Assembly: GCA_008632985.1 (NCBI GenBank)
Contig: QPGO01000101.1
Coordinates: 310,001 to 332,024, forward strand
Source: Psammoneis japonica
Taxonomy: Eukaryota
Length of the DNA: 22,024 nt
Direction of reading: 5' to 3'
How positions within the stretch are numbered: position 1 is the first letter of the stretch; every line of letters begins with the position of its first letter. Positions 1-22,024 of this stretch are shown piece after piece. The position numbers were made by a program, and so were the translations under genes. The notes under the pieces were generated by a model. That model did not search any database, was not told the DNA's origin, and was given only the letters and a program-made list of their open reading frames with translations.

Positions 1-146
1 GATTGTCGTCAGGTGGTGTGTCGAGAGGAGTCGTGATGGAGTGCCGCTTTGTGTTTTTGTGCTGCGTCTGTGCAGGAATGTNGCGTGCTTGGCTCTCGTG
101 TAGTTTCCACACAAAAAGTGCACCAGGCAATCTCTGGACCGCCCTC
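1..146. mobile_element. Terminal fragment of a second copy of the Sola3-like element, running off the window's left edge
   Basis: 2-146 is the reverse complement of 244-389 and a direct match to 3915-4028. It ends in ...gccctc, immediately followed by an intact TTAA (147-150). Confidence 0.8.
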
Positions 147-1531
147 TTAATTGCCGAAGGCATGTCTGCCACGGCACACAAACACAACATCATCTTAAGT
201 GATGACTGCCAAAATCAACTTTTGGCGAAGACATGTGTGTCAAGAGGGCGGTCCAGAGATCGCCTGGTGCACTTTTTACACAGAAACTGCCAGAGAGCCA
301 ATCACGCACATTCCCACACAGACGCAGTGCAAAACAGAAAGCATGGCACTCCATCACGCGACCTCACGACGACACCACCTGACGACAATGCATCAAAATG
401 GCGTCGTCCGCATCTTTCTGCAGCTCCTCTTTCACTTGCCTGATTGCTCCAAAAGGGCCAGGGGAAGCCAACAAGCTTTCTCTTGCAATGGAGCAATGCA
501 GACAAAAGTTGTTTTTTGTTCCAAAATCTCAGAACACAGTGCAACCGATTGTCAAGGTGAACTTGCACGTTGGCGGCAACAACACCAGTTGATGTTCACT
601 CTAGAACAACAATGGAGACGTGACACCCCAACAAAATGAAGTCCACACCCCCATGACAAATTTCAAAGCCAGCTCTTCTTGTTGGCGTGCAATCTTTAGC
701 TGCTTTTTAGACTTGACAAAATGATCATCTGCCCCGGCTGTCACCCTCCAAGTTTGTTGCATTGGCTGACAAATTGGGCAAGCAAGCCACATGTTTCTAG
801 CTTGCAAACTGCCTTGCAGCCAAAAGAAGCAATCTAAACCTTCAGAACAGCCATGATGCACTGGTCTGCCGAATCAAACTCCACATCACCAAGTGGAGGC
901 GGGGAGAGCCATTGTCAAAAATGCACTGTGACGGATCTGAGCTCTTGAGAGCTTGTCCAGCTTTTGACACCACATGGCCCCAAATCACCACATTTGTCAT
1001 GAAGTCAGCCTGATGCTGTGTCTGTGACTTTGCCTCGTTTTGGAATTGCTGCGGCCATCGCATTGCAGAATTGACATTCTTGATGAGGAAAAGTGTTTCT
1101 GGGATGCCTTGCGACGATGGAGACCCTGCAGAACAAAAGAACAATGTAGAAAGAGACAACACATGCAAGTCAAACGGGCATTGATGTGTGAAGCCTCAAC
1201 AAAACACACAGCACAAATGGCGACACATGAGGTCGGTCGTGATGCAACAGAAGTGATGCTGTCAACGCGAACCTTCAGCAAGAATTTTCACCATCAGCTG
1301 CCCATGTGAGCCTGTGTGCTCTCGAGCTTGTCACATGCCTCATGCCATGACGTAAGATGTTCCGTTGAGAGCACACTGCAAAGTGCCTCAGAAACAACCG
1401 CATTTTTGAAATCGGCGAAACGCCATTGTCTGTGTCATTTTGCGTGTCATTTTGCGTCGCAAGCCAGAAAACACTCCCAAAAACTGTTCTGCAGGGCAAA
1501 ATGTGCTGAATCTACACAGATTTGGGTTGCA

Positions 1532-1633
1532 CCAGGCCACACAGAAAATGAACGGGCCGAGAACTGTGGTGCGCCCACTTGGTTAAGTGGGCGTGCCAGA
1601 GTTTTCGGCCCGTTCACTTTCTACGTGGCCTGG
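1532..1633. mobile_element. 102-bp hairpin MITE with a 2-bp TSD (ca, probably ex-TA; Tc1/mariner-like)
   Basis: 49-bp arms (1532-1580, 1585-1633) around a 4-nt loop ggtt. Flanked by ca/ca. The opposite palindrome arm (~2150-2165) shows the empty site ttg-ca-agg. Confidence 0.85.
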
Positions 1634-3342
1634 CAAGGACTGAGGCGAGCGCGCGGCCACACGAAGTTGTCAGTCCCGCCCACTCGTGACTCAGTGCATT
1701 TCCACGGTGAAAATTGCGCAGGAATCTGACGATGACAAAAACGGTCAGATGACTTCCACTGACTGCAATGTGAGCCGCACCTGACGTACATTCTTTGTTT
1801 GTTCACAGTTGAGTTGACCATTTCAGGCGTTGCATGCAGTTGCTTTGACAAATTGGAAGTCATCCGAGACAAAACACAAATCGCACGGAGTGCCGTGGAT
1901 TTGCACGCAATGCAGTGCTTGGCGTCATTTTGGTGAAATTCATCAAAGTGACTGCATCCAACGCTCAAAGGTGTTAATTCATGCACAAAAGAAGATGCAA
2001 TGCACATTGGGTGCAGTTGACATTGCAGCCAGTGGAAGTCATCTGACCGTTTTTGTCATCTTCGGATTCCTGCGCAATTTTCACCGCAGAAATGTGCTGA
2101 GTCACAAGTGGACGGGACTGACAACTTCGTGCAGCCGCGCGCTTGCCTCAGTCCTTGCAACCCAAATCTGTGTGGATTCAGCACATTTCGCCCTGTAGAA
2201 CAGTTTTTGGGAGTGTTTTCTGGCTCGCGGCTCAAAACAACACGCAAAATAACACAGACAATGGCGTTTCACCGATTTGAAAAATGCGATCGTCTCTGAG
2301 GTTGGAACCTGTGTGCTCTCAATGGAATTTGGTGCGTCACATCATAAGATGCGAGACAAGCTTGAGAACGCCCAGGTTCACATGGGCAGATCATGGTGAA
2401 ATTTTGAACTGAAGATTGGTGCTGACATCGCCGATTTTGTTGCATCAACACGCAACTCATGCATCACCATTCATGCTGTGCATTTCGTTGAGCACCCACA
2501 CGCTCACATTCTTTCAACGTGCACGTGTGTTGTCTTTCCTCATTGTTGTTTTGTCATGCAGGGTCTCCCTTGCCATGAGCCATCCCTGAGAGAGAAAAGC
2601 TTGCTTTGAATGTCACTTCTACCTTGCAACGGCCACGGCAGTCTGACGACAAGTCCAAGTCACATGTGCAGCATCAGGGTGACTTCACAACAAACACAGA
2701 AGCTTGGGTCTGTGGCTTCTGAAGATGTTCAAGCTCTTGGCAGCTCAGACTTGTCGTCGAGCAATTTTGCCGCGCATTTGACGTGCATCCAGAAGGTGAT
2801 GCGGAGTTTGACTTGGCAGGCCAGTGCATCATGGTGGTTCTAAAGGCATGGATTGATTCTTTTGGCTGCAAGGTGTTTTGCAGCCCAGAAACATGCAACT
2901 TGTTTGCCCCATTTGTCAGCCAATGCAACAAATTTAGAGGGCGAAGGACGGGACAAATGGGTCATTGTGTCAAGTCTCAAAAGTGGCTCAAGAGTTTCAG
3001 CCAACAAGAGCCATTGGCTTCACAATTTAACAAGTGAGTGCAGAGTGTGTGTGTTGGGGCACAACATCTCCATTGTTGTTCTAGAGTGAACAGCAAATGG
3101 CATTGATTTGGCTGACAGTGCAGCCAATGTGCGGGCGCACCTTGACAATCTGTTGCACTGCATTCTGAGATTGTGGAATGAAAAGAACAACTTCAGTTTA
3201 CATTGTTTCATCATGACAGAAGTGTGCGAGCTTTCCCTGGCCCTTTTGGAGCAATCGGGCAAGTGAAAGAGGAGCTGCAGACAGATGCAGACGATGCCAT
3301 TTTGATGCATGGTCGTCGCACGGTGTCGTCGTGAGTCGCTGA

Positions 3343-3906
3343 CAGGCTCATGGGCTCAGGGGGGAGCTGGGGCTCCCCAGTTTATTTTGTCTGGCGAGGT
3401 GGGTTGTGAGCCACTGGGGCACACCAAGTGCCACGTGCCGCACCACGCACTGTGCCAAGCAGCACGGACCACGCGACGAGCGCATGGTGCACAGTGCAGT
3501 GCACACAGTGCATGCAAATGAACCGCAATGGCAGATGCCATCCATTGCAAGCAGACACCATCAAATGAACACACCATGGAGCATGATGCGCCTGCTGCAG
3601 ATGAGTCTTTTCTCTCCTGAGGAACTTGTTCAATGAGAATCAAACAAGAGTTCTCAGACAAGATCACACTCTCTCTCCTTCTTGCATGCAACAAAAGGCC
3701 TGCCCAGGTGCCCAGCCAGAGCAGACTGCAGTTCAATGTGTGCAACAGATCGCATGATGATGGTCTGACCTGCACCGCAGGGTGTGATCCCCCCCAGGTT
3801 TAACAGGCAGCATGATGGCGCACTCCAAAAACTGGGCCCCTGCTTTTTTTGTCGGGGGGACTCCTCTTTTTCTCGCAAAGTGCTCCCCCCCAAACCCACA
3901 AGCCTG
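3343..3906. mobile_element. Non-autonomous hAT-like element, 564 bp
   Basis: Perfect 8-bp TSD gtcgctga (3335-3342, 3907-3914). 25-bp imperfect TIRs start CAGG (caggctcatgggctcaggggggagc vs caggcttgtgggtttgggggggagc). It interrupts the right arm of the palindrome and is absent from the left arm. Confidence 0.9.
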
Positions 3907-4260
3907 GTCGCTGATGGGCGTGTCATGCTTTCTGTTTTTGTGCTGCGTCTGTGTGGGAATGTGCGTGCTTGTCTCTTGTGTGGCTTCTGTGCAAAAAGTG
4001 TGCCAGGCTGTCTCCGGAGACTGCCCTCTCAATGTTTTGGCAATTTTGTTGGAAAACGAAAACATTTGTCTTACATCAGACACAATTTGTTGTGCTGTAC
4101 ATCCAACAGAATGCAACAAAATCCGTCAGCACAAGTCTGTGCTGAATGACTGGGCATGAGTTTCTGGAAAAAACAAATGGCAGAACCAAATTCCTCATGT
4201 GTGGAAAGGGGGGCAAGGCACTGAGGGTTTGTTGGATGACAGGGTTTGAGGTTGAGATGT

Positions 4261-4657
4261 GACAATCAAAGCAGGTTTGTGTGGGACCTTGCGCTGCCGC
4301 TGAGCTGTGACACTCCTGATGGTTTTTGGAATTGAGTCGCGTGTTGCGCACGTGCACTTCCCGTGATTTTGGTGAAATTTTGCGTCATTTCATGGCACAA
4401 TTGTTGGGCAATCCACTCAACAACTTTTGACGTTTTTTCTTCTGCACCATTCTCAAATGTCTTGAGAGCGGCACAGGGCAGGCAGGCCATCCCCAAAACC
4501 TCAAGTGTGAGCAGAGACAGATGCTCCACAAACTTGATTGTTTGCTTTGTGTTGAAGACAAACATGCCCATCAACCAGAGTGTGAACTTCAGAGCTTGTG
4601 CACAAAATTCCATGGGGCAAATGCCACAAACAGCCCAACCTGGGTCTGGAACATGTC
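4261..4657 (-). mobile_element. Degenerate copy of the ~395-bp GACG...CGTC MITE family
   Basis: Colinear with 16159-16548 (e.g. caacaacttttgac, cacaaacttg...gttgaagacaaa). Right end is ctggaacatgtc. Left end is eroded and no TSD is recognisable. Confidence 0.7.
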
Positions 4658-5094
4658 TTTTGTTGTTGATGACAAAGACAGCCAAATTTTGTCAAGTTGT
4701 GTGCTGAGCAAAAGGACATCGCCAAAGCACATGTTGAGCACAAATGACGTTGAACATTTTGTTGCTGAGTTTTACAATGTTTTTGTCCTGTTTGTCGCCA
4801 ATGATTTTTGCTTTGTCTTGTTTCCCTCTTTTCAAGACAAGCCATCAATCAAAACACTGTGTGTCCCAGAGAGTCACCTCAAATCTGTTGAAAATGTGTT
4901 GGCGGCAGTCCTTGGTTTGCTTGTGCATGTGTCACCTCACCTCACCAAACACAAAGCTGTGTGCAAAAGACATCTCCAATTGTGGCATGGCATGTGGTGC
5001 ATGACCGTTGCGGCACTGTGCATCATCGCGCATGATGCCAATTTGTTTGGGCATGAATGTCTGTGTCAAAAAATCTCAACGGACATCCAAAAAA

Positions 5095-5487
5095 TGTTGA
5101 ACCTGATGGTCTCAACAAAAACTCTGTTGAAACCACATGGTTTCAACAAAACTCTGTTGGCAGCCAAGAAAGTTTTGTTGAGGTTTTCTGTTGAAACCAG
5201 CAGTTTCAACAAAATGAGTTTTTGACAAAAAGTGCTGAAATTGTTGGAATGTTGAAAGTGACGTCATTGTTTGGAGATCGGTGCTTGTCAACATTGTGCC
5301 AACACACACAACAAACACTCCACTTTGATGAGTTGAAAGAACTTGTCAAAAAAACTGCTCACTGCCATGGCAACTTGCACAAAACAAACACCTTGTCTGA
5401 CGCGGAGTTCCGTGCACCACTCAGCGTGCAATGTCTGGCATCCACTCATTTTTCAACAAAATTTGTTCAAACCACATGGTCACAACA
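5095..5487. repeat. Cluster of ~24-bp palindromes tgttgaaacc...ggtttcaaca
   Basis: Copies at 5095-5117, 5125-5148, 5189-5211 and 5464-5487, plus half-sites in between. Confidence 0.7.
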
Positions 5488-5799
5488 AAAATCCGTTGAA
5501 ACTGAAAACATTCTGGGAAGCATGAACTCCTCTGGGGGGGCACCATGTGCAACACTTTTTTGTGTGTGTGCTCCATCATGTGTGAGTGTAAATTTGCAAT
5601 TTGCCAATTCCCTGCACATCCCCTCTCACAACTGTTGTGTCTTGTCACTGCGAGCGCAAGCTGCAGCGCATCTGCAGTGAGGGCCAAGGCTGCAGCAGAG
5701 CCGTGCAAGCTCAAAACACATGTGGTTGATTTGATGGTGTCATTTTGTTCTTTCCCTCTCTTGTGACAAGGGGGCACTTTGTGTTGATGTGCTGATGCT

Positions 5800-7480
5800 T
5801 CAACCATGCTCATCACCTGCAGTGAGTGGATGGTCATGGGGCTGCATGCACACCTGCCCAAAATGTTGACCCCATCCCCTGGGCCCTTTCAGGGGGCATT
5901 CCTTCCTGCAAAATCACCCTCATTTCCAGGGTTTCCCCAAAGAAGGTGAGTCAACTCCCCCTTGCTGCCTTGGCCACATTTTGGGGGATCCACAAATGTG
6001 CAACAACCACGCCGAGGGCTCAAAAATGCAAGCTTGCCAGCTCTGCCACAGACAGAGTGGGGCGCAATGATTGGCGCTTTGCCAGAGGCTTGGCATCTTC
6101 ACTCAAGGCCACAGTGGACACTGTGTCATCTGATGAGGTTGCTGCAGCACACTCTGGAACAGCAGCATCATGCATCATCTTGCTTTGGCCATTTCATGAC
6201 TGAGCATGCAGGTGCGCTGTCTCTCAGCCAATTTGTGTGCCTGGCGCAGTTCTTGATTTCTCTTGGGCAGAGATTCATTTGCACCAGAGCTGCAGTTGAG
6301 TTGACACCAGAGCTGCAATTGAAAGCACACAGTCAAAAAGATTTGTCACCTTGTCAACATCTTCACAAACCCACAAAGCTTTTCAAGAACATGTGTCATC
6401 TTCTCTGCAACAGCGTCATTTGCTGCCAGCACTGCTGCACTCACCTTGTTGGGCTTGTTGTTTTTGGGCTTCTTGTTTGACCACATCATGCAACAGCTTT
6501 CTGAGAATTGGGGCAACACAATGGAAAACAAGCCAGGATTTGACTGGCTTGCTCAGACCATCAAAACAGCCAGGGGCTGTGTGTGTCGGTGAGGGCATGG
6601 CGCTGCATCACTTCTCATGACCCGCGCTGGCTGGCACTGCAAAGAGTGCTCCATCTGTGGCGTGCAGAGAGATTCACATGCACAAGTGAAAATCTGGTCT
6701 GTCCTCTGCCTCATGGCATCTCTGCAAAAGTTTTTTTGTTTCCAAAATTGATGGCTTCTTTGCTGTGCGGTGCTTCTTTTGTGTCGACGGGTTCCAGTCC
6801 TGGGTGGGACTCCGTGTGACATTGGGCCCGCAGAATTCTGCGTGCGAGCTCCGCAGCAAATTTGCACTGCAATGAAAATGCACATGATTGCCAACAGAAA
6901 AAGAGGCAATTTTACAAACGTGTCTCCTCCTTCATGCACGCAGCACATCATTGACAGTTTGCTCGGGCATGTTCTTCAGACATCAAAGAACACACCCGGT
7001 GCATTTTCATTCTCACAAATGTTGAAAATAGAAAGCCTTTTGCTTTGCAAAACAGGGGGCACGAAACAATTTCGTAGAACATCACACGTAGAAATGCACA
7101 TGCGCGACATGCGACACGATCCAAAAAACTGTTGATGTCACAGTTCAGCAGCACGAGGTCCCACCTAGAGCTGGAATTCGTCTGTCTTCTGATGTCGCCA
7201 ATTGATGTGTCTTTGTTCCTGCATTTGCCATGTTTGTGGCTCACGCCACTGCTGCTGTTGCAACAAGGGCCTTTTTTTGCCCCAAGAGGACAGACAGGTC
7301 ATCAACAGAATTCCGCGTGGCAGCTCATCAAAAAAATTCTGAGTTTTTTTGGCATTGAACTTGTGCAGCAAGTCAATCACTCAGCCATCATCTCTTGCAA
7401 TGGCAGCATGACAAGTGCACAATGCACACTTTCATCAAACAATGTGGGCCCACAAACTCTCACTTGTTGTTGATTTGCCT
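5800..7480 (-). pseudogene. Possible decayed coding region of unknown product, interrupted by a MITE
   Basis: Protein-like minus-strand stretches (SWLVFHCVAPILRKLLHDVVKQE; ALGVVVAHLWIPQNVA) broken by TGA stops. No family recognised and boundaries are approximate. Confidence 0.25.
6786..7182 (+). mobile_element. 397-bp MITE, GACG...CGTC family, 4-bp TSD (Sola-like, tentative)
   Basis: TIRs gacgggttccagtcctgggtgggac / gtcccacctagagctggaattcgtc. TSD tgtc (6782-6785, 7183-7186). Colinear with 14204-14599. Confidence 0.9.
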
Positions 7481-7944
7481 TGTTGCCTGCATTTTGCATT
7501 CAGGTGTCATCACAAATTTGAAATGGACAATGTAAAAAGCACCCATCATTGAGGACAATCAACAACAAAAAATCTCAGCAAATTCTTGATCGGTGGATGA
7601 CTTTTCTCGTCACAGAAAATGCAGCGATGTGCTGCTTTTGACCACCCACCGCACCATGCTGCAACATTCATTTGTCCCACTGTTTTCATCAAGATCTCCA
7701 TTGACCTTCTGACTGATGCTTGCAGACTGGGTTTGTGCATCAGTTTGCTCTTGCCCTGACATGACAGACTGGCTGGAAGAGGACAGAGACCAATTTTCTG
7801 CTTGTGGTGCCACAGCAATTCAAAGCGGCGTTGGCTTCGCAGAAATGAATTTTTTGCACCAGTGCAGAAATGCATGCATGTGCATCTGGCACATGAAAAT
7901 CATGCCGGATCAATCTTTTTTCCCAACATTTGGCAATGGCGGCG

Positions 7945-8501
7945 GACGTGTTCCAGCCGTGCGTGAACCAAATCATGCACAAAAACAACATTTGCACAAT
8001 TTTTGCACGGCCCCTGACTTGCGATCGAACTTTCAACACCAAAAGCACAGATTCGCACAAATGCAAATGTTTTGCGACACTGACAAGACTCGTGTGAGTG
8101 TCGCAACATGTTGTTGTTGTTGCGCTCTCTGTGTTTTTCATTGCGCTAAAAGATTTGCAACACAACAGATGATTTTCGGCGAAAATGTTGCTGTCATTTG
8201 GACGTCACCTGAGTGTGTCTTTCTGCGATGCCACTTGGCAGGTTTTCCACCTGCAAAGAAATGTCAGCATAAATCAACTGATGCACAATCAGTGTTGAGT
8301 CCACTGAGGAAGTTTGTGATGCATTTCCCATGAGGATTTGAGTGATGCTCAAAAAACCGTTTGAATGTGCATGCTCAAGAAGCCCACAAAAGTCAATCCG
8401 TCTGAGTGTTTTGCATGAAAATGCTGCACACACTAAAAGATGCATGAACTGCACTCAAAATTGATTGTCGTTTTGTGCGTCACCTGGGGCTGGAGCATGT
8501 C
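7945..8501. mobile_element. 557-bp MITE sharing the GACG-family TIR
   Basis: Ends gacgtgttccagcc / ggctggagcatgtc. TSD ggcg (7941-7944, 8502-8505). Interior differs from the ~395-bp copies. Confidence 0.8.
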
Positions 8502-8820
8502 GGCGGTGGACCGTTCGCAGCTGATGCGCCACTGACACCACGTCAATTGTCATCAAACCCATGGCATGTTGCTTGTCACCCTCTTCTTGGCACACATGTT
8601 CCTTTGAAATTGCGCACTCTTTGGCCACAATCCAGACAATCAACAACATCAACATGGGCAAATGTCTGGTGGGGCAATGGTCTGACATTGCCCACGAACT
8701 CGCGCGCGACATTCTTGCCCGACATGTCTGATTTTTATAAAATTTGGTTTAAATTTTTTTACACACGGTGTCAGAAATCTCACTTCATCATCCAATGTTT
8801 TTTGTCATGTGTCTCAAGAA

Positions 8821-9581
8821 AATGGAGTGGCGCACTTTCAAAAATTCGGTGCGCATGCCTGATCTGCACAAAATGTGCGTGCGCAAAAATGTGCTGCAAA
8901 ATTTGTAGAGATGTTTGTTTGAATTCACTTCACACACAAACATCACGGCAACAACGCCGCGACATCGGCAATGGACGCACACAACAACGACAGCGGACTG
9001 GGAGGTTGTGATGCACTGAGACAACAACTGACATGCAAGAAATGAGGTGTCAATGTCAAATGACAATGATCAAGTTGTTTTGGGAGCTGGTTGAGCCATT
9101 GGTGACGAAGGGTTTTTGGCACGCACAACTTGGTGCTGAAATCACGCAGAGGTTTTGGCCATGGTGGGACTGTTGTTTTTCACTTTTTTTGGGGTGTGTT
9201 TTGTGTTTTCTCGGTCGATCGCATTGATGGAGCACTGAAGTGAGCACGCGACAACAGATTTTGACGAAAAGTTGGATTTTCATTCATTGTGGAGGATTGG
9301 CACGGGGTTTTTAACACGGTGAAGCACGGGGGGACGATTTTTTCACCAGATTTGCAAGATCCTGCATCCCGCCCAATTTGCGCGCATGACATTGGTGGAT
9401 TGATGCATTTTTCACACGCAAAAAGCGCAACAACGTCAACACACCTGACATGACAGACTTCCCGTGCTGTTGTCGCAATGAAGTGAAATCTTGTTGTGTT
9501 CGGTGCGTGGAGTCTAGCACCATTTGTCCGCATGTGGACGAGTGCTGCGCACCGCAATTTTGGAAAGTGCGCCACTCCATT
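8821..9581. mobile_element. ~755-bp TIR element, superfamily unassigned
   Basis: ~35-bp inverted repeat aatggagtggcgcactttcaaaaattcggtgcgca (8821-8855) vs 9546-9581, with weak similarity extending ~130 bp inward. Exact ends and TSD are ambiguous. Confidence 0.7.
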
Positions 9582-10387
9582 CAAATGTGGCGACCATGCG
9601 GAGAATGTTCCCGACATTTTCAAGTGCAGCACTCATCCACTTTTCACTGTGCAACAATTCCCCTTTGTGACAGCCCCCGATTCACATTGCTTTCAAACCC
9701 TGCTTTAAATCTGACAAGCACACGGACAACATTCCCGCCATTTTACAGTGCAACACTTGGATGCTTTTCACATTCTACATTGCTGCAGCTCCCGAGCTGA
9801 GTGGATTTCCCAGTTGACATCAATGCCACAGTCATTTCCTGTCACACATTGGCAAACGCCACCGCCATTCTGCACGCGTCCTCGTTGCACCCTTGGTCGC
9901 TTCTGTGTGTTGTTGTTCACTCCTCCTCATCAAGACCCCATTTTTCCTCTTCTTCTTCCTCTTTGCTCCCTTGCTTGTCATTCCTTCCTTTGGCCTCCTC
10001 CTTGCTGTCACTCCAATCATTTTTTGGAGCAGCCCATCCACTCATGCTGTCCTTTTTTTCTTCTTTCTTTTCTGCAGGCACTGTGCATTGACTCTGCCGC
10101 AATCCACTCTCTCCTTCACCACAGCATCGCAGAGTTTGTCGCACTTGTCGATCTCATCCTGGTTCCATCCTTGATTTCGTTTTGCACCTTTCCCCAAGAA
10201 AGTGCACTTGGTGGCCACGGGTTGTTTCAGTGGTGCAGCCACGTGACCTTGTTCGAATTGCTCTTCGATCTCTGCCACCGACACGGCCGTTTCACAGCAG
10301 TTGTCATGCATCAGCCTGGCAAAAGCTTCTGTGCATGTTGTCAGCCAATCGCAGACACCTTGGCTGTCTGCTGTTTTAACATGGCAT

Positions 10388-10971
10388 GAGACGAAAATTG
10401 TTTGGAATTTTTTCTGGTGTGATTTCCACACGTTTCTACACAAAGCGATGGTTGCACTTCGGCTTTTCCCAGGATGCCATCAAATGCTGCGTTTCCTTCA
10501 ACCAAGTGTCCTGCATTCTCAATTGGTGTCTCCTTGACTTGCCTGTGGAAAGAAGCTGCAAGTTTCAAGATTGTGTCAATGAGATGTTCCTGTTGGCAAA
10601 AAAAAGGTCCTGTTTTTTCGCCCCAAGTTTTTGAATTAGATGCTCAGATGGGAAAAAGTGTCGAAAGGTGCAGTTTCTTTCACTCGGCAGGAAGCCAAGA
10701 CAGTGGAGAAAGTGTCTGCATGCTTGAACTCACAAGTGTTTTTGTCTTGGAAGTGCCTTTCATGGCCTTTCCAAGACGATGTAGAGAACGAGGCAACAAA
10801 TGAGCAATCGCCAAAACGGAATTTCCGTTGAGCGACACACTTGCAATCACGCGCATGCCAACCCATGTGATTCGCCAATGAGACACAATGCTTTTGTCCG
10901 ACGACGAATTCCTGATTCCCGTGATTTTCAATGAAAATGCGCGCGGAAACGATTTTCACAATTTTCGTCTC
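10388..10971. mobile_element. 584-bp MITE with GAG...CTC ends and a 4-bp TSD (Sola2-like, tentative)
   Basis: Perfect 14-bp TIR gagacgaaaattgt / acaattttcgtctc. TSD gcat (10384-10387) / gcac (10972-10975). Inserted in the accessory pseudogene. Confidence 0.8.
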
Positions 10972-11059
10972 GCACCACCTTGAAGTGCTCTGTTCCTGCC
11001 GCTGGGGGGGCAGCAATTTTCCAAGAACCAGAAGTGCGTTTGAGGCAACGCAGCCATTT

Positions 11060-11126
11060 CTGAGCAAGAATCAATTTGTGAGAACACTGGCCCATCTCAT
11101 CCACGCACAGCCCTGACAGTGCTTGC
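11060..11126 (-). other. 67-bp spliceosomal intron with donor GCAAGC (probably ex-GTAAGT)
   Basis: Minus strand: G|gcaagc...ctcac...ctcag|AA. Splicing gives ...RKKLV-E-MAALPQTHFWFLEN. Confidence 0.6.
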
Positions 11127-12129
11127 CAACCAACTTCTTTCTAAAAACCTCCTGCCTGTTGTTTCTTCTTCTGTCAAGTCTTTTCCGCACCTTCTCCTTG
11201 TTCGCTTCCCACCAAACTGCAGAGTCACTCGCGTCCACATTGAGGTGTTTGCAAACCTTTTTCTGCATTTTGCTCCCGAACGCCAACTCAACATCGTCGT
11301 GCATCACGAATTTTGTCTTTGGGTGCACAGCCATTGCAGCGCAGTCGGTCATCTGGCCGTCCACAAACTTTCTCCTCACCGCCTCCGAGCTGACAACGGA
11401 CACTCCCGCAATCTCCACATCGTGTGATCTTGTCTCTGCCATGTCATGGGTGCCAACTGCAATGAAGGTCACAAGACATGCGTGAGCTTGCCAACCCATT
11501 TGTGCAATGATGCCGCAACGCACTCACCTGGTGAATCGTTTCGTGCCGACATGTTTGCTCACCCACTCTCCAGTGTGTTTTGTGTCAACGAAATTCCTCC
11601 CTCTGTGCCAAACCCAGTCCTGAGTGTGCGCCCGCCAGCACGCCCGTTGGCCCTGTTTGAAAACTCCCTTTTGTTGCATGCCAAATTTTTCAAAGCACTC
11701 ACTGTCAAGCATCAATTGATGAATTTTACATTCCTTTTGAATGGCATGTTTTGTCGTTGTCAGCCTCACATCATCCATTCACTGTGCATTTCATGATCCA
11801 TGCAAAGAACAATGGCACTCCCCACTGTTGCATGCCACAATTTTCAAATCTCCAGCTAATTTTTTTTTCGTCCAGATTTCAACAGAAGCAAGGGCTGCAG
11901 TCCGGACACTTCTTTTTACTTTTTTGTCTGGCGTGCGACACCTCGCTGTGCCGTCTTGGTTGCCATGCTCTGAGCTGCCCCGATCTTGTTCTCGCCCGGC
12001 CACAAAGAGCAGAGCACCGTTTTGACATGCAGCATTTCTCAACTCACTGGTCCGTTGCATGTTTCCATGATGTGGCATGCACTGTGTTGATGTCACACTG
12101 TCCAGGCCATCAGGCTCATCTCTTCACCC

Positions 12130-13592
12130 TCAGTCATTGCCCAGCCTTGCTCTCACACTTCTGTTTTCCTCATTGTTGACTGCCTCTTCTTCTCTCGCCG
12201 TCTCGCACGATTCGCACAAGCACTCCACAACTTCATGCAATCCACCGTTGTGACCATGTCTGGCTGAATGCACTCCTGTGCAAAATGTCCGCAATCCCAA
12301 GAGCACTTTCTTGCACACTGCTGTGTCTCCGCTCACCAGCGGGGGGCAAGTTCCCTCTGCGCAAGGCCAGAAGGCTCTGTCGCCGTTGTCGTGTTCTTCC
12401 AGATGAATCACGTTAACACGGGTTTCTCCTCCTGGTCTCACCTGACCATCTCTTCTGGGCGGCAGAGCACACACAATGAGCGGGTGGCGGCATTCTTTGT
12501 CTCCTTCAAGGCAAGCCAACACAATTGCGCAAGGCAGCTGCTGCGAAACGCACACCAGTGTCTCCAGCTCCAAGTCCACCAAATCTGTCGTCAACGTCAC
12601 TTTGTCCATGCACGGGTTGCAACGGATCTTTTCCTTTTTTATCCACCCTTTCACAAATGGTTGCCAGCTGTGCCAGTTGAATCTGTCACCATCCATGTGT
12701 CCCACCGCGACACAACAATTCAAAGCTCTGCGGTCGACGCAAGTTCTGTTTTTATCCAGTCTTTCATGCAAACTCATCATCTGAAATTCTCCCTCAATGT
12801 GCGCCTCTCGCAATTCACGCAATGGCCTTTTCATCTGGTTTTTCCGCATTGAAGTGCACCTGGGATTGCCAAAGTTGCGCCTCCACATTCTCAACGTGTT
12901 GTCTTGCTTTGCTGCTTCTCTCAAAGCATTGAGCACGTGTGGCAACATCTGTTTGTGACCCTGCAGCTCATGTGAGAAAACACACATTCCAGGATGCCTT
13001 TGGTTGATGCAAGGCATCCAAGGCTGCCCAGTGTGTTGTGCTGTTGGCAACTGGAACACAACATGTTTGATCAAAGTGCCGATTCTCTGTTGATGGATTG
13101 TGATGTGTGGCAGCTGCGGCGCCACTTCGACTCTGCAGGGTCGCTGCATCAAAATTTTGTGTGGGGCCAACTCATCTTCCAAAATTCTCCCTCAATGTGC
13201 GCCTCTCGCAATTCACGCAACGGCCTTTTCATCTGGTTTTTCCGCACTGAAGTGCACCTGGGATTGCCAAAGTCGCGCCTCCACATTCTCAACGTGTTGT
13301 CTTGCTTTGCTGCTTCTCTCAAAGCATTGAGCACGTGTGGCAACATCTGTTTGTGATCCTGCAGCTCATGTGAGAAAACACACATTCCAGGACGCCTTTG
13401 GTTGACACAAGGCATCCAAGGCTGCCCAGTGCACTGTGCTGTTGGCAACTGGAACACAACATGTTTGATCAAAGCGCCGATTCTCTGTTGATGGATTGCG
13501 ATGTGTGGCAGCTGTGGCGCCACTTCGACTCTGCAGGGTCGCTGCATCGAAATTTCATGTGGGGCTGCACCCGGGGATTCCAGTCGCACCAT
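12130..13592 (-). pseudogene. Unknown ~350-aa protein gene disrupted by an internal tandem duplication
   Basis: Collapsing the duplication merges ORFs 13149-13592 and 12130-13182 into one Tyr-free, protein-like frame. It is divergent from the gene at 14056. Confidence 0.5.
12771..13566. repeat. Tandem duplication, 2 x 398 bp
   Basis: 12771-13168 and 13169-13566 are colinear with a constant 398-bp offset. Differences are almost all transitions. Confidence 0.95.
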
Positions 13593-14203
13593 CCATTCAT
13601 CATGTGTCGCTGAAAGTGAGAATGAAATTTTGATGTTTGTCTTTCAACTTGTCGATTCGACTGCACACAACCAGGACACAAATCGACACACTGTCATCAA
13701 AAAAGAATTGATTTTTTGTCAAATTTTCTGCACTGTCACCCAAACAAGAGAGTGATTCTGTGCAGCTCAATTTTCATTGCTGAGGACAATTCTTTTGTGT
13801 TTTTTTGTGGTCCCAGGTGATGCTCCGGGAACACGCCCACGTGTTCACAATGTCACACAACCTCTTTGCATCTGTGTTGCTGTTTTCTTCTGCTTGGTTG
13901 CAACCCACTCTGCAACAAACATCCATTTTCTCCTGCCATGTCGTTGTCACATTCCAGCTGTCACCACATTTGTCATCTGCCACCCACTCCAACAGGACTT
14001 GATCGCCGAAACAACAAACACTCTCGGCAACGTGCGCATTTCCAACCCGGTCAGCATGTCAGCAAGAGGACCTTGACATGCAAGAAGCACCAATCATTTG
14101 TTCCGCACTCTTGATGCTGATGGATTTCTCAACACACTTCCAACGGGACAAGCTTTGGTCATCCGGCCAAGAGCGCTGCATGACTGTTTGATGGTGCACA
14201 ACA

Positions 14204-14599
14204 GACGGGTTCCAGCCCCAGGTGGGACTTTTTGTGACATTGGGCCCGCAGAATTCTGCGTGCGAGCTCCGCAGTAAAATCATCAAGCAATGGACACATG
14301 AATGATCGCCAACAGAAAAAGAGGCAATTTTGCGAACGCATCTCCTCCTCCACACTTGAAGCACATTCTTTGCAGCATGCCCGGGCATGTTCTTTAGACA
14401 TCAAAGAATGTGCCCAGCGCATTTTTGTTGGCACAAGTGCAGATGACAGAAAGCCTTTGGCTTCGCAAAACAGGCAGTGTGGAACAATTTTTCACAACAG
14501 AACACGCAGAAATGCACGTGCAAAACACACGACGGATGACAAAAAATGATTGTGTCACAGCTCAGCAGTGCGAGGTCCCACCTGGAGCTGGAACACGTC
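14204..14599 (+). mobile_element. 396-bp MITE, GACG...CGTC family
   Basis: TIRs gacgggttccag / ctggaacacgtc. TSD aaca (14200-14203, 14600-14603). Excision restores the host frame (VHN-NKHL). Confidence 0.92.
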
Positions 14600-15523
14600 A
14601 ACAACAAACATCTGTCATCTGCGCTGAGGGAGGTTGCAGAGGAATTGTCGTCGCAGATGAGCCGACGAAGACAGGCTGATGCAAGGAGAAAATCTCTTGC
14701 TGGGAAAAGGAAGTGCACGCAAGACGATGACTCGCTGGAAAAGAGCGCACCTGCTGACGAGGTTCATGGCAATTCTGTTGGTTCCCGTGTGGAGGGACTT
14801 TTGATTGAATTGACAAAGGACATGTCAGCAGACTTTTGACTTTGCTCACACCGCTTTGGAGGTGACGAGCCACTGTTTGCCGATCAAGCAGTGTTGGACA
14901 ACCATTGCTTCGGATGTCGCGACGAATCATCCGACTCACCCAATGTCTGCACCACCGGGAATGACGTTGTCAACAACAGTGTGTTGGTTGTGGGCCTTGT
15001 CTTCAGCGACGGGACAACTGACGCATCCTCCCAGGAGCGCAGAGACACCACAGCATGCAAGGCACTGGTCAAAAACGGATTCAACGTCCACACTGTTGAC
15101 TGCCATCAAACAGTTGCTTCGAATCCGAATCACGTGGTTGCCGATGTGCTTGCTCTCAATCGTTGTGAAAATTGGGCTTCCAAGGAATGTGCCCACAACT
15201 CAATGTTGATGGACATTGGGCTCAAATCTCACTTCAACGACAGAATCTTGACAGACTCGTTTTTCAGTCAATCGTTGACTCGCTTCCGTCAAAAGCTGTC
15301 TGATGTTGGCAATGCATTTCTGCCTGTCGATGCGACGGTGGCCCGTTGCCTTCATGAGAGCTGGGCTGTGGTTGGCAAAGTGTGGATTGTCAGGTGCCTG
15401 TGAAATGATCAGTTGGAGGAAGTGCCTCTTTTCCATCCATTTGCAGTTGCACACCTGCGCCGTGACGGAAAGCAGGTGGGCACTCATCCTTCTTGTGAAG
15501 ATTGTGGAGCAACATTGTTGGAG

Positions 15524-15602
15524 GTGCGTGTTTCATTTAGATTTTTTGTGCTGGCTTCTCGTTTTGGTTGTCGCTCACTTCTTGGATTTTGTCAATCTCT
15601 AG
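15524..15602 (+). other. 79-bp spliceosomal intron
   Basis: GAG|gtgcgt...T-rich...ctcac...ctctag|ATC. Splicing links ORF 15413 to the frame of ORF 15645 and everything downstream. Confidence 0.7.
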
Positions 15603-16158
15603 ATCAAGGACTTTGTCTCAGACAAAACACAGGAGCCAGTTGTTTTGTGCCCACATGGCGTTGAAAAAATCAACTGCATTGCTCTCACTCCACGAAGAAG
15701 CAACCGCGTCACCACCACTTGTGAGGTTGCAAACTCGTTGCAGGCAGTCGATGGTGTTGACGGAAAGGTTTGCGCAAGATGTTCCTTTGAACATCTGGAA
15801 AGCTGTGCAATGTGTCCCATGTGCTGTCAGATGCTGCTGTGAAAGGCTTGGAACACCAAGTCTCTTGCAGACCGGGGCCACAAGCTAGACGCAGCTTTAG
15901 ATGCCATTGATGCAAACTGTGGTCACATGGGCAGAAGGAGCAAGCGCAAGACTGGGGAAATCAGCAAGGCCGACCTTCCAAAGGAAAAAAAATTCAGTTG
16001 TTGGGTTGAACAGTGCCAGCCGCTGGACACCCCGAATGGGCAAGATGACAAGCATTGGGGAACAACCTCACTTTTCCCAACAGACAAGAAGAGAAGTCAC
16101 AAGCCCAGTTGTTCCCCGATTTCGATCTTGCCAATCTGCAAAAGATCAAAACTTCATG

Positions 16159-16548
16159 GACGCGTTCCAGGTCTAGGTGGGACCTCGCACTGCTGAACTG
16201 TGACATCGACAGTTTTTTGAATCACGTCGCATGTCGCACACGTAGATTTCTACGTGATTTTTTCGATGTTTTGTGTCATTTTACGGTGCACTTGTTGAGC
16301 GATCCGTCCAACAACTTTTGACATTTTTTGTTGCAGCGCGATTCTACAATGTCTTAAGAATCGCGCAGGGCAGGCGCATTTGCAAAAACGTTGAGTGGCA
16401 AGAGGCACAATTGCACCACAAACTTGGCAGTTTGTTTGATGTTGAAGACAAATGTGTCCATCAATTAAATTCTCATGCTACGGAGCTCGCACGTAGAATT
16501 CCACGGGCCCAATGTCACACGGAGTCCCACCTGGGACTGGAACCCGTC
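16159..16548 (-). mobile_element. 390-bp MITE, GACG...CGTC family (least mutated copy)
   Basis: TIRs gacgcgttccaggtctaggtgggac / gtcccacctgggactggaacccgtc. TSD catg (16155-16158, 16549-16552). Excision restores KLHG-KDSH. Confidence 0.92.
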
Positions 16549-18893
16549 CATGGAAAAGACAGCCATTGTCGAGAAAAAGCGTGGATGCCAGATTCAAGTG
16601 CATTTCCGTTTGCACGTGAGCTGGCACGCGGCAACTGGGTTGGAGTCTGCAAAGAAACTGGCATCGAATCTCGGTGGCGATGTTCGTGTGATGCCAAATT
16701 CGTGCAATCATCCTCATTCTTGTTGTGCCCAAAGGATCCAATCATCGTCAACAAACACAATGTTGCTGGAGCTGACACTCCTGCAGACAGCAAACCCATT
16801 TTTCAAATGCTTCAATTGCCACCGGAGATTGCAAATGAGGACCTTTTGTCTCAAACTGCAAGTGTCGTCGAGGATGGATCATGCACTGGACTCGGCGATG
16901 AGTTTGTCACCCTTTCAAAAGCAGACAAGCGCAGAAAGTTTTGCTCCATGGACGGCGGGGTCAATGCAGCTGGTGGGAAATGGAGCAGAAGCTGTGGTGT
17001 GGGAGTGGCAATGCCGGGATGCCCACCGGGAGCAACCGACCGCACATCTCCAAGGTTGCGCAGGTGGACACTCCAGCTCTCTGCAATGGTGGTGCATGGC
17101 GTTTGCCGTGGGGTGCTGGATGGAACACAACGATCGCAACAGGGTGCAACAAGCTCCCTCCGACGAAGGGTTGCCTCAAAATGTCAAAGATGGCTGAACT
17201 GCCCAGATGATCTGTGGGCCATTCTAAGAGAGCTCCGCACACACACCTCCTCAATTGGAGCAGCGACTTGGCATTCAGATGCGAGCAATGGGAAGGACAT
17301 TGATCACGATCACATCACACTTGCCTCACATTTGGTTGAGGACTGGTCCATGTTTCCATCCCAAAAAAATGTCAACAAGCCATTGGAGAATTGTGTGCCT
17401 GCAAGAAACAGCTGCTTTGCTCACTTGTTGCACACAAGGTCGATCATTGACAGCCAATTGAAGAAGCTTGAGTTGCACGTTGATTGTCCTTGTGCGGAGT
17501 CTTTGATTGCAGCACTGAAGGAACATTCCGACACCATTTGCCTGCACACACTCAGCAACCAGGAAGAAACAGCCAAGGCTGCAGAAAAGATTCTGTCTTT
17601 GGCAGAAACAAATGTCACATCTGACCACAGCAAAGGAAGGTGCATCAAGATGAAGGAGGGTGAGACTCAAACAACAGTGCTCGGGTGCATCGTGTGGCTG
17701 TGGATTCTGTTTTGTGAGCGCTGAGACGGAGCTGTTTGCCTCTGACATGTTGCAGAGTGCAAGGGGTTGGTTTGCAGGGAATGCAGTGGAACACCTCTGC
17801 CAGCTCGGTCTGTGTCAACTGCTGTCTCCTTGCCAGCTTGGGAGAGAATGCTCAAGTCTTTGACTGAACTGAGGGGCAAGATGTTCAAGTGCATCGCACG
17901 ATTGGTGAAAGAAGCAAAATGTGGTGGTGACCTCAGCAAGGCACACTGTTCCTCCCATCCCAGGTGGCAGAATGTCAGCAAGAGCCTGTGTGACGGGACA
18001 CCCGAAACAGAAGATTGTCCACATCTGTTTGTCAGTTTTTTGGAAGAACAAGACAGGGTGCTGCGCAATCCAAACTCGATGGAAGAAGCAAAGGAAACGG
18101 CTCGTCAGTTGACAATGGATGGGAAAAAAACAAGGAAAGCAGTGCAGCTTGGAAGCGCAAGAGGAAATTTGTGCATCCAATCTGGTGCCTGCCTTGGTGA
18201 TTGTCCAGCTGAGAATGCCACATTTGCTGCTTTAAGTGATGATGATAAAAACGGATTCTATCGGCGCCTGGTTGACACGGTGGTGGAGAGTTCTCCCGTT
18301 GAACATTCTGGTGGAATTGAGTTAGACGAGGCACAGAAGACATGTGAGGCAGCGCGGCGACTGACGCGCAACAACAAAATGTCAGTGACCATGGCATGCA
18401 TGGACCAGCCATCATGTCACCTGCACCGTCCAAGGAAACATGGTTTGAAAGAGGACTTCATTTTCCTCCACAATGACGGCACAGTCTTTTTGCTGATGAG
18501 ACACAAGGAATTGTGCGCCACTGCTGCCAAGACACACGGATTCAAACATCAGATCAAATTTTTCTCAGTCGACAAATGACACGGACTGGAGGATTTTGCT
18601 GCAAAATGCAGTCACACAACCGACCCGGAGAGTGTGTGGTCACATTCAAACCTTGTTGAATTGTGCCAGAAAACGTTGACAGAATTCCGGAAAATCATGT
18701 GAGGAGACTTGCTTTGTTGCAATGCATTGTCAAACTTCACATGCACTCCTGCCTCCCGAGTGCAAGCCACCATTTAAAAAAAGCTCAGGCCACTCATTCT
18801 TCATGTCGAGGACAAACAAAATCTTGTTGTCAGACGTCTCTTGATCGGACATGGAGCCGGACAGGGACAAATTGGTCACATTTTGACTTTCCT

Positions 18894-21800
18894 CTAAATT
18901 GTTTTCAACAGCTTTTTTTCTTTTCTGGCCTTTCTTTTGTTTTTTGCCCCGGTCAACAAAAGCTGTCTTGGGCAATGCAACACGCCCATTCCGCCGCCAA
19001 CAAGCACGTTCTTCTGACAATGCCCAAAGGTGCGTTTGGGTGATGTGCCCTCCATTCGCCAATGCTGAAACAAACCGTTCTTGCTCGTTTTTGTTTCCAT
19101 GGCGTTTTGCTTCAGACAAGTTCTCCCAAAAGCAACAACTTCTTTTTTGTTGTCACTCAGAATGAAACCACACAGTTGCATTGGAAACAAGCTGTCGGTT
19201 CCATCGTCATTTCTGCATTTGACACGTGCAAAGTCATGCCATCACCCGCCCTTGCGGCAATTTGGGTGCGCCCAAAAGCGCAGCTTGTGTTCGGCCTACA
19301 GATTTGACTTGGAATGCACAATGACGTGCCTGCGCCGGATTCCCCACTGGTTGCGACGGCACAAAAAATCAACAATGTCTGGCTCCAGATGAGTGCTTTG
19401 TTCCCTTTTCATTTCCAAGGTGCCGGTGCACTTGCAGTGTGTTTTTTTGACTCAGTCGACTGTGAACATGGCGCGACCCAGGTCGTGGTGCAATGATGCT
19501 GCCACTGACAAATCCTGAGATGCATGTGGATGGACAATCAAATTGTTGGCTCTCTCCAAAAGACTCTGCTTGTGCAGTCGGCTTGCAAGTTGACGTGTGA
19601 ACTCTTCTTTGCCTTGCAATGCTTGGCAGGTCCAACTTGGAAGCTTTGCCCATTTCTTTGGACCAGACTTGCCGGTGGCGGCATCCCATCCAGAAAACAC
19701 ACCCAACTGACAAAGAGCGGTGATCAAGCGCAGCAGGTTGTGGAACTTGGATGTTTTCCATCCATGCGTGCCTTCACCGTGATTGATCATGCTGCGCAGC
19801 TCAAACATCAGAGGTGCCAGGCAACATTTGATGTTGGCTCGGTTGGCGTGTGAGTGCAGGGAAGAACTGCAGCTGCAGAAGGAGTGGAGCAACAACAATT
19901 TGTTGAGCAACAGCAACAAGTGTTCCACATCGTCACAGTCCATTGAACAACAAGCCGGCTCCATGTCGTTGCACAGGCTGTTTGGCCTTTGGCGGAATGC
20001 AAGAGGCAACTCCTTTTCAATTTCTGAACAAACGAACGGCGGGTCGTGAGAATTTGCCTTTGTGTGAAGGGACTGGCGTCAATCCGCGCAGCATCTAAAA
20101 ATCTCAGAAACGGAGGAATCGGCATGGTTTGGGATGCAGAGCTGACGATCCAGGTTGACATTTCTTGTTTGCATCCACACAGTGTTGTGACAAATGTGAG
20201 CTTGAGCCATTGTCAGCTGCGTCATGCAACGATGTGTGTGCATGAGCCCGCGACGGTGATGTTGATCCTCCAGATGTTCATTGTGGACAGGGTCATTGTG
20301 GTTGCATTCTTCGTCAGCACAAGGCTTGCCAACCAAGGATGTGGAGGCCTGTGGTGGTTGATCCCCAGGGGAAACTTCCTCCTCGTCACTCTCTTCCTTG
20401 TCATCTTGCAGATTTGGCTGCTGTTCATCTGAGTCATGTGCGGACTCATCGTCATCATCAAGCAAATTGTTGTGGTTGTCGGAAACGGGCTCACCTTCTT
20501 TGTGTGCACAACCATCATTGTCTTCTTCTTTGCGCTCACATTCTTCTTCGTGCTCACATTCTGAAGGCTGATCATCGAAATTAGAAGCACCTTTTTTCTT
20601 TGTCTTGTCAAAATCAGGATGGCAACGAAGACGGAGCATGCTCTGTCCCTCCTCGGTCTGACCCATCAGTGCCAGCGCAAACAGCTTTCCCATCTTTTGG
20701 TCGCAGGTCAAACCAGACAAGGCACAAAATCCATTTCGCAAGACAACCGGTGGAAAGTTAGATCTCTGACCTGGTCTGCACGACTGAGATCCAAGTGTGC
20801 GGTTTGCCAAAGCAATCAGTTGGGATTGGGAGGAATCGGGCAAATCGTCGAGAATGACAGAGAGCGTCTGAGGGACCATGCCACCTTGGAACATGTGCAT
20901 TGGATCAGGGGGCGCAAACCCAAACACACCCTGACGATTGTCTCCCATCCAAAGATGAAAGAATGAGTTGTCAGCCGTGTGTTGGCCAAACACCTTGTGA
21001 AGCATGGTGGAACAAATGTTCATGCGCCGGATGACTGCGCTGTGTGCCTTGGAACGGATTGAATCGGCTTTCGTCTCAGACATCACTGTGTCGATTTGTG
21101 ATTCGACACAAAGATGCCATGGACTGTTGGTGGAACTGGGTGGTGGTCCAAGTGCTGCAACAGTCAAGTGCTCCATCAGTTCTTGGGAAAAGCGCCTGCA
21201 GCAATGTGAAGGTTCATCGCTGTTGGTCCACGAAGTGTGACAGGCATGACTGATGTGGCGGGAGTTTTCGCGACCAGAAACACGGCCGGTTGCTTGTGCG
21301 GCGTTGACAGCACTGCCCAACAATGTCATGCTGTGGACAACAATGCACTCACAACAACGCTGGTCACCGAGTCGGGCTCGGCAGATGGGAGGTGATTCTT
21401 GTGCTTGAATTGCAGACGCCAGAAGAACAGACAAAATTTGGTGGCAATTTCTGACGTTCATCCCGAAAACGGGATTCTTTGTTTTGCAACCTGTGTGTTT
21501 TGGAACAAAACCAAGAGGACGCCATGCTTCAAAACGACGGTGGGCACATGACTTGATGAGAGTTGCAGAGAAAACAAATGGCTCCATTGAATGAGGTGCG
21601 ACCTGTCCTTTCCCAGTTTTGTCGGTGCAATGCAAAATGAACACATGAAAGGAACCGGGGACAGCAGGAAAAATGCAGCCACAACATCAGTTGCTGCAAG
21701 TTTCACCATCCTTCATTTTGGCATCATCACAAAGTTTCCAGTTGCCATTCTCGTCCAACATGGGTTCACTGGAGATCACCTGAGACCAGCGTGAATTGGG

Positions 21801-22024
21801 AGGAACATCAAGATTTGAAAGTTTGGCAAAAAGGGGATCGTCGAACAGATCCTGCAGTTGGAGGGAAAAGTTGCACACAGGGATGCCGGGAGAGAGCTCC
21901 TGAGGCAGGTTGTTCTTGAGTTGGTTGGCAGTGGAGACAGACTCGAGAGGAGTGTGCTGCGGCACCGGGGGCACAACGCCAGGCAACATTGACTTGAGCT
22001 TGGACAGGAAAGTTTGAGAAGAGG
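18894..22024 (-). pseudogene. Plavaka-type (CACTA-related) transposase pseudogene; 5' end lies outside the window
   Basis: Motifs in order: TDKT, EP, AWRPLGFVP, RNCHQIL, PPDPMHMFQGG, acidic insert, GWKTSKFH..L......LG...GWD...G....K.WAK.P...CQ, and C-terminal AHPNCRKGG*WHDF (~19230-19270). Stops and frameshifts are present. Confidence 0.8.

Follow-up and report, generated by a model that had tools for sequence, protein, structure and literature searches.

Introduction

A stretch of DNA that has lost nearly every copy of one dinucleotide raises the question of what removed it. We asked this of a 22,024-nt stretch of contig QPGO01000101.1 (positions 310,001 to 332,024 of the forward strand; hereafter the window, with coordinates counted from its first letter), in which the step TpA is almost missing from end to end. 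An earlier note on this DNA had read the deficit as the work of a repeat-targeted mutator that turns TpA into TpG or CpA, and had known of no description of such a process. Our analysis retains one part of that interpretation, a TpA-specific change of TA to TG or CA on both strands of dead mobile DNA, while the targeting of repeats is not supported and the absence of a description no longer holds. Our combined findings suggest that a TpA-specific transition process has likely erased about 94% of the TA steps in a block of dead mobile-element DNA, matching what experiments have shown in the alga Bigelowiella natans (Mettrop et al., bioRxiv 10.64898/2026.01.13.699255). Part of the text of this preprint was accessible, and all statements on B. 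natans below refer to that part.

Depletion of TpA across the window

The base composition of the window is near-even (A 5451, C 5465, G 5299, T 5808 and one N, at position 82, in otherwise clean surrounding sequence), and 1437 TpA steps are expected from it. We counted 87, which gives an observed/expected ratio (o/e) of 0.06 (binomial z −36.8) and a TpA frequency of 0.0040; the 85-90 steps against about 1,500 expected that had been estimated by eye in the earlier note were thus close to the mark. CpA (2318/1353, o/e 1.71) and TpG (2297/1397, o/e 1.64) are enriched, with an o/e of about 1.68 for the two combined, CpG is depleted (789/1315, o/e 0.60) and the remaining dinucleotides all lie within an o/e of 0.80-1.30. 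These include AG and CT, the product of A-to-G change after A, which are not elevated (0.86 and 0.89, respectively). The surplus of CA and TG (965 + 900 = 1865) is matched by the deficits of TA (1350) and CG (526), which sum to 1876.

The depletion forms one continuous block over positions 1-22024, on no particular strand, and neither edge of the block falls inside the window. Individual 1-kb bins contain 0-9 TA steps versus 56-75 expected; Rho_TpA is at most 0.14 in all 22 bins, and Rho_CpA+TpG is at least 1.52 in 20 of the 22 and about 1.51-1.52 in the other two. Only three TA steps lie within 19501-22024, as had been noticed before (positions 20096, 20582 and 20759). The o/e of TA is 0.026 in the gene remnants described below, 0.104 in the 6037 bases that are repeated within the window and 0.044 in the 15,987 bases that are not. 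TAA and TAG each occur 7-18 times per about 7341 codons in every one of the six reading frames, versus 145-197 for TGA, and long open reading frames (ORFs) are abundant because these two stops are nearly missing from all six frames. The TpA depletion of the window is confirmed as real.

Direction of change

Comparison with related proteins gives a direction to the change. The window contains remnants of two genes. Gene 1, a member of an uncharacterised multi-copy family, occupies positions 19050-22022 on the minus strand and extends past the window's right end. Its homologues number five, P0001-P0005 (E 1.7e-118 to 3.1e-48), and in tblastn searches residues 146-731 of P0001 cover 22022-20244 and residues 515-748 of P0003 cover 19811-19050. 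These matches need no intron and follow a single reading frame, which is broken by in-frame stops at 21689, 19454, 19298 and 19244 and by an ORF end near 20078. The part singled out earlier, a 521-aa ORF (20079-21644, minus), indeed contains no Tyr (0%), compared with 1.1-3.5% Tyr in the five homologues. All three columns with Tyr in at least four of the five homologues read Cys in the window. For gene 2 (14999-15475 and 16577-18636, plus strand), aligned with 11 homologues, the window has His at two of the three conserved Tyr columns and Leu at the third, so that five of the six conserved Tyr columns of the two genes together read Cys or His. When 18 gene 1 relatives were aligned, two of the three conserved Tyr columns had Cys in the window and the other had Phe. 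In addition, three of eight conserved Ile columns in gene 1 read Met, as expected from a change of ATA to ATG.

Three Tyr motifs had been put forward in the earlier note as markers of direction. The change of RNYH to RNCH stands, with Tyr in all five homologues, as does that of HPNYR to HPNCR, with the window's HPNCR (19254-19268, minus) aligned to HNYR of P0003. The proposed change of WYD to WHD fails as a marker because P0003 itself reads WHD there. A splice donor reading gcaag, also listed in that note as a marker, is putative. Low TpA as an intrinsic trait of the gene 1 family was considered and ruled out: the 19 metagenomic loci that encode relatives (L001-L019) have a TA o/e of 0.35-0.65 in every case.

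Copies within the window give a second line of evidence. Among 3424 aligned dinucleotides in paralogue pairs, with each self-palindrome entered once, TA is retained in both copies at 3, and faces CA or TG at 44, while CA in one copy faces TG in the other at 68. In the uncorrected count, the CA/TG class numbers 80, versus 19 for the next double-difference class (AC/GT). All three pairs of paralogous sites named previously (7085/14503, 7162/14579 and 16477/6830-6855) differ as had been described. A model of independent decay in two copies gives a TpA loss of 88% per copy from about 208 ancestral TpA steps (6.1% of dinucleotides), and predicts about 81 CA/TG differences from TpA, compared with the 68 counted. 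The boundary of a short unit present in three copies within 1-4033 tells the same story in miniature, reading CCCTC-TTAA at 142-150, CCCTC-TTGA at 240-248 (minus) and CCCTC-TCAA at 4024-4032; the difference between TTAA and TCAA had been noticed earlier, and TTGA adds a third state. The change from TA to TG or CA is restricted to TpA, affected both strands, and took place both before and after the internal duplications.

The copies are old and partly noisy. Of the 594 sites that differ between them, 201 fall into three context classes, 150 are other transitions and 243 are transversions. Relative to this background, TpA loss would be roughly 20-40 times faster, at about 2.1 per site (−ln 0.12) versus about 0.056 per base per copy. 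Where three or four copies could be aligned, 27 sites carry both CA and TG, with CG surviving in a further copy at 11 of them, TA at 4 and neither at 12. Few TA witnesses at such sites are the expected outcome, because TA rarely survives.

CA and TG outcomes are about equally frequent and finely interleaved. In a runs test of CA versus TG products (z = −1.9), they were less clustered than in all five control pairs. Strand-coordinated tracts of deamination were ruled out by this test, and no long single-strand tracts were seen. Separately, positions 10001-14000 show a strand asymmetry (GC skew −0.15, AT skew −0.16, with C>G and T>A) that a symmetric TpA process leaves unexplained.

The 87 surviving TA steps are unevenly spread over flanking contexts: with R for purine and Y for pyrimidine, 2 are in RTAY, 43 in RTAR/YTAY and 42 in YTAR, compared with about 1253, 2373 and 989 CA/TG tetranucleotides of the matching types. 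By tetranucleotide, we found none in ATAT or ATAC/GTAT, 2 in GTAC, 19 in CTAA/TTAG, 18 in CTAC/GTAG, 15 in TTAA and 8 in CTAG. YTAR appears to retain TA about 25 times more often than RTAY does; native CA and TG are included in the denominators, and the figure is a lead and not a measurement. In the same sense, the order of contexts, with RTAY lost most and YTAR least, is a lead.

Concurrent loss of CpG

A second and weaker process, missed in the earlier note, accompanies the first. Among the paralogue dinucleotides, CG is shared at 86 and faces CA or TG at 89. The independent-decay model assigns CpG a loss of 34% per copy and predicts 11.5 CA/TG differences from this source. In a tandem duplication of two 398-bp copies (12768-13565, plus strand, 95% identical), the copies differ at 20 bases; of 16 differing sites, 7 have CG versus TG or CA and 4 have TG versus CA. 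At the protein level, His, Cys or Gln has taken the place of conserved Arg at 5 of 12 columns of gene 1 and at 1 of 9 columns of gene 2, while conserved His, Cys or Gln columns read Arg at none of 22 in the two genes. On these comparisons, a slower decay of CpG to TpG or CpA beside the TpA process is real, and it supplies part of the CA/TG surplus.

Contents of the window

The sequence of the window is consistent with at least 22 kb of dead mobile-element DNA, comprising two decayed genes, four units resembling miniature inverted-repeat transposable elements (MITEs) and a foldback-like region. When 86 stop-to-stop ORFs with a length of 100 aa or more were searched against Pfam, none gave a match at E <= 0.01, and 8 long ORFs and 9 homologues gave no convincing one. 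The window contains no tRNA genes or Rfam families, and these three scans revealed no host gene among its contents.

Gene 1 is further damaged by non-conservative changes at conserved Asp and Gly residues. To its five homologues, the fungus Geosiphon pyriformis (Glomeromycotina) contributes one hypothetical protein, and the other four are unnamed proteins. The metagenomic relatives recur within single assemblies, with four loci coming from one, for example, and none were found in the viral contigs searched. Gene 1 gave zero matches to PDB sequence profiles, and the AlphaFold model of the family was unusable (mean predicted local distance difference test (pLDDT) score 41). The label "transposase", the earlier note's, is putative and has no Pfam match behind it; the pattern DKTG...EPFVFT...R...LP may be akin to the first catalytic region of DDE transposases of the CACTA/Plavaka/KDZ type. 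Beyond its conserved core, the family has a long acidic stretch rich in Asp and Glu. The nearest relative, P0001 (51% identity), has itself little Tyr (1.1%) and much Cys and His. Of its conserved columns, 2 of the 4 for Tyr hold His or Cys, and 6 of the 15 for Arg hold His, Cys or Gln. On these small numbers, P0001 could be a copy that was hypermutated in part, whether in the same organism or in a related one.

The main part of the gene 2 remnant (16577-18636, plus) was recognised from relatives at E <= 1e-3, of which there are 14 (best 6.4e-42, lengths up to 1521 aa), and carries in-frame TGA stops at 17722 and 17743. A probable N-terminal piece lies at 14999-15475 (plus), where residues 108-267 of P0010 match (E 3.8e-12). 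The relatives, P0006-P0021, are large proteins of 600-1676 aa that belong to no Pfam family, and their conserved motifs include N-G-x-G-V-A-x-P-G. Against PDB profiles, they gave only weak zinc-ribbon (RanBP-type) matches, in some members. A word-index search with gene 2 returned no matches, and a search with its relative P0010 returned unnamed proteins only. This may be a protein family of mobile elements or viruses that has yet to be described.

The gap between the two gene 2 pieces contains one of the four MITE-like units, each of about 400 bp and all on the plus strand. Units A (4272-4652), B (16159-16559), C (6786-7182) and D (14204-14599) have common terminal inverted repeats of about 28 bp (in unit B, GACG.GTTCCAG...GGTGGGAC) and differ in their middles, where A and B form one type and C and D another; A is 72% identical to B, and D is 77% identical to C. 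Unit A is damaged at its left end. The three intact units have matched 4-bp flanks, namely CATG for B, TGTC for C and AACA for D, and not TTAA. The TTAA-type boundaries belong to the short unit found three times within 1-4033. Unit B retains TA where sister copies have CA or TG. The left end of the window (2-4033, no strand) consists of nested, foldback-like long inverted repeats with arms at 358-1531 and 2156-3339 (74% identical) and palindromes at 2-389, 1532-1633 (centred near the TTAA at 1583-1586) and 1633-2158.

Proposed mechanism and alternatives

A full-text literature search returned one report of TpA-specific hypermutation, that of Mettrop et al. (bioRxiv 10.64898/2026.01.13.699255), who describe how foreign DNA integrated in B. 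natans is hypermutated from TpA to TpG/CpA, so that the earlier statement that no description was known is outdated. In mutation-accumulation lines of this organism, sequenced with Illumina technology, two viral regions integrated in the genome took up 231 of the 302 nuclear point mutations; 230 of these 231 were A-to-G or T-to-C, and all 230 were on TpA. The hypermutation ran at about 1000 times the baseline rate, or about 1e-7 to 1e-6 de novo TpA mutations per site per generation, in some lines only, while the baseline spectrum was AT-biased and the main hypermutable region single-copy. The B. natans reference genome contains 324 low-TpA coding sequences (mean TpA frequency 0.0018) and 124 clusters of 1-kb windows poor in TpA and rich in CpA+TpG, and its TpA-depleted sequences are enriched for DDE, reverse transcriptase and transposon domains and for unannotated ORFs. 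[quoted passage not shown]

The window resembles these B. natans sequences in having TpA as sole target and both TpG and CpA as products. Clusters are defined in the preprint by cut-offs for Rho_TpA together with Rho_CpA+TpG (the latter 1.52) on 1-kb windows, and 20 of the 22 bins of our window pass both; its TpA frequency is of the order of that of the low-TpA coding sequences. It differs in its degree of change, with the actively mutating insert of a nucleocytoplasmic large DNA virus still unsaturated at a Rho_TpA of 0.45, whereas the window, at 0.06, is near the end state. CpG decay, flanking-base context and Tyr loss are seen here and are not mentioned in the accessible preprint text, in which the word "CpG" has no occurrence.

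We suggest the following sequence of events. TA would have been changed to TG or CA at TpA only, until about 94% of these steps had been rewritten, through a long-lasting action that preceded and followed the internal duplications, with the slower decay of CpG to TpG or CpA running in parallel. Because TpA is self-complementary, a single event reads as A-to-G on one strand and as T-to-C on the opposite one. Most likely, an enzyme would deaminate adenine to hypoxanthine in 5'-TA-3' DNA, a candidate being a polynucleotide adenosine deaminase of the TadA/ADAT2 kind. The tRNA substrate of such enzymes has a universal U33-A34 context, which the idea would fit. The enzyme would be directed to silenced foreign chromatin and not to repeats as such, and the losses it would cause, of Tyr codons, TAA and TAG stops, TATA-like motifs and TTAA insertion sites, would be irreversible. 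Of these, the loss of Tyr codons and TTAA sites had been anticipated in the earlier note and is supported here, together with that of the TAA and TAG stops.

Several points weigh against this explanation. No sequence in the window points to an adenine deaminase, and deamination of adenine and modification of thymine are indistinguishable here because TpA is symmetric. The Tyr columns polarised by outgroups number only six, and the view that most CA/TG differences come from TA draws on the decay model and the mass balance instead of direct witnesses. The evidence on TpA is confined to the window, and a normal TpA level in the rest of the genome is an assumption. The label "foreign" or "mobile" for both genes rests on copy number and context, with no Pfam match and a model with a pLDDT of 41. 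Finally, strand-dependent miscalls would likewise produce randomly interleaved CA and TG.

Of the alternatives, the one that survives best, though we consider it unlikely, is the earlier note's own version: a homology-dependent mutator similar to RIP in ascomycete fungi, by which duplicates would be sensed and only repeats mutated at TpA. The window is rich in repeats (the four MITE-like units, the foldback arms and the tandem duplication), copies were struck independently after duplication, and both gene families look multi-copy elsewhere, as in the metagenome assembly with four loci. With RIP, the pattern shares context-dependent transition hypermutation, irreversible disabling of mobile DNA, skewed dinucleotides and independent change of copies. 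However, RIP converts CpA to TpA and so raises TpA and AT content, whereas here TpA was removed 16-fold, CpA is enriched and GC rises. Moreover, RIP requires duplication, whereas depletion in the DNA that is unrepeated, as judged inside the window, is no weaker (0.044) than in the repeated DNA (0.104), which argues against the targeting of repeats, as does the single-copy state of the main hypermutable region of B. natans (bioRxiv 10.64898/2026.01.13.699255).

It is improbable that no targeting is involved and that all unconstrained DNA of this genome drifts from TpA to TpG or CpA, with selection retaining TA in functional genes. The window would suit such a bias in containing no host gene and in having only pseudogenes as its recognisable genes. 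Nonetheless, an o/e of 0.06 over all neutral DNA would be unprecedented, with no report of it in the full-text literature search, and in B. natans, the one organism studied so far that shows this signature, hypermutation is limited to certain regions and lines against a baseline that is AT-biased (bioRxiv 10.64898/2026.01.13.699255).

Marginally less probable again is an artefact of sequencing or processing, in which a modified T or A in TpA is misread as CA or TG. Besides matching the interleaving of products noted above, this would have to explain why the genes are also damaged in other ways, through in-frame TGA stops, the replacement of Arg at 5 of 12 conserved columns by His, Cys or Gln, and altered conserved Asp and Gly residues. 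The DNA would be dead even if the TpA deficit were an artefact, because of these stops and Arg, Asp and Gly changes. Furthermore, 87 TA steps do persist, a genome-wide misreading would remove every Tyr codon from the assembly, and de novo mutations with the same signature arose in the Illumina-sequenced lines of B. natans (bioRxiv 10.64898/2026.01.13.699255).

We give almost no credence to decay of methylated CpG as the only source of the CA/TG surplus, with TpA low for other reasons. Such decay has a self-complementary target too, yields TpG and CpA and leaves CA-versus-TG differences between copies; the CpG o/e of 0.60, the 89 differences of CG versus CA/TG, the Arg changes at 5 of 12 columns and the survival of CG at 11 of the 15 witnessed sites with CA and TG all speak for its presence. 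However, its target is CpG, with about 34% lost per copy versus about 88% for TpA, the deficit of 526 is less than one third of the surplus of 1865, and the model yields 11.5 of the 68 CA/TG differences. The change of Tyr to Cys and His and the TTAA/TTGA/TCAA site are also left unexplained. As a sole cause, CpG decay is refuted by the size of the deficit and by the model, and we keep it as a secondary process.

Equally far-fetched is a route by which element RNA would undergo ADAR-type A-to-I editing, be reverse-transcribed and insert again: ADAR does prefer a 5' U (discussed in bioRxiv 10.64898/2026.01.13.699255) and RNA of inverted repeats, of which the window holds many, is its substrate, but none of the 86 ORFs of at least 100 aa has a reverse transcriptase or other Pfam domain, the depletion runs evenly through the 22 kb, element boundaries and unique DNA included, and the signal of AA to AG is missing (AG o/e 0.86). 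More generally, the animal APOBEC and ADAR systems resemble the process favoured here in being deaminase-driven, defensive hypermutation with a preference for neighbouring bases. APOBEC enzymes differ in causing C-to-T or G-to-A changes, compared with A:T to G:C strictly at TpA here. ADAR acts on double-stranded RNA and edits after A too, whereas the DNA of the window has no signature of reverse transcription.

Implications

The type of process that we propose for the window is already in print, in the 2026 preprint, and the block is a saturated instance of it on transposon-like DNA. New from this block, relative to the accessible preprint text, are the bias in flanking context, the concurrent decay of CpG and the consequences at the protein level. 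A DNA mutator that acts on TpA only, and thereby opposes the usual bias from GC to AT, is a rare kind of genome defence, and the block shows it at completion, with a 521-aa ORF devoid of Tyr, TAA and TAG almost gone and TTAA targets destroyed. The elements are beyond revival because their Tyr codons, stops and TTAA targets have been lost.

The pattern also offers leads for enzymology, in that both strands were struck without long one-strand tracts and RTAY was erased more fully than YTAR. A natural TpA-specific DNA adenine deaminase, should it exist, would be relevant to base editing.

More tentatively, and on balance doubtfully, the window may come from an organism other than B. natans, and/or the block may add to the process, as the accessible preprint text describes it, saturation on DNA transposons, the YTAR/RTAY context and a coupling to CpG. 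If such coupling is real, it suggests a single silencing state in which both self-complementary pyrimidine-purine steps are erased. Should the organism be another, TpA erasure would represent a defence of eukaryotic genomes more widely and not the oddity of a single species.

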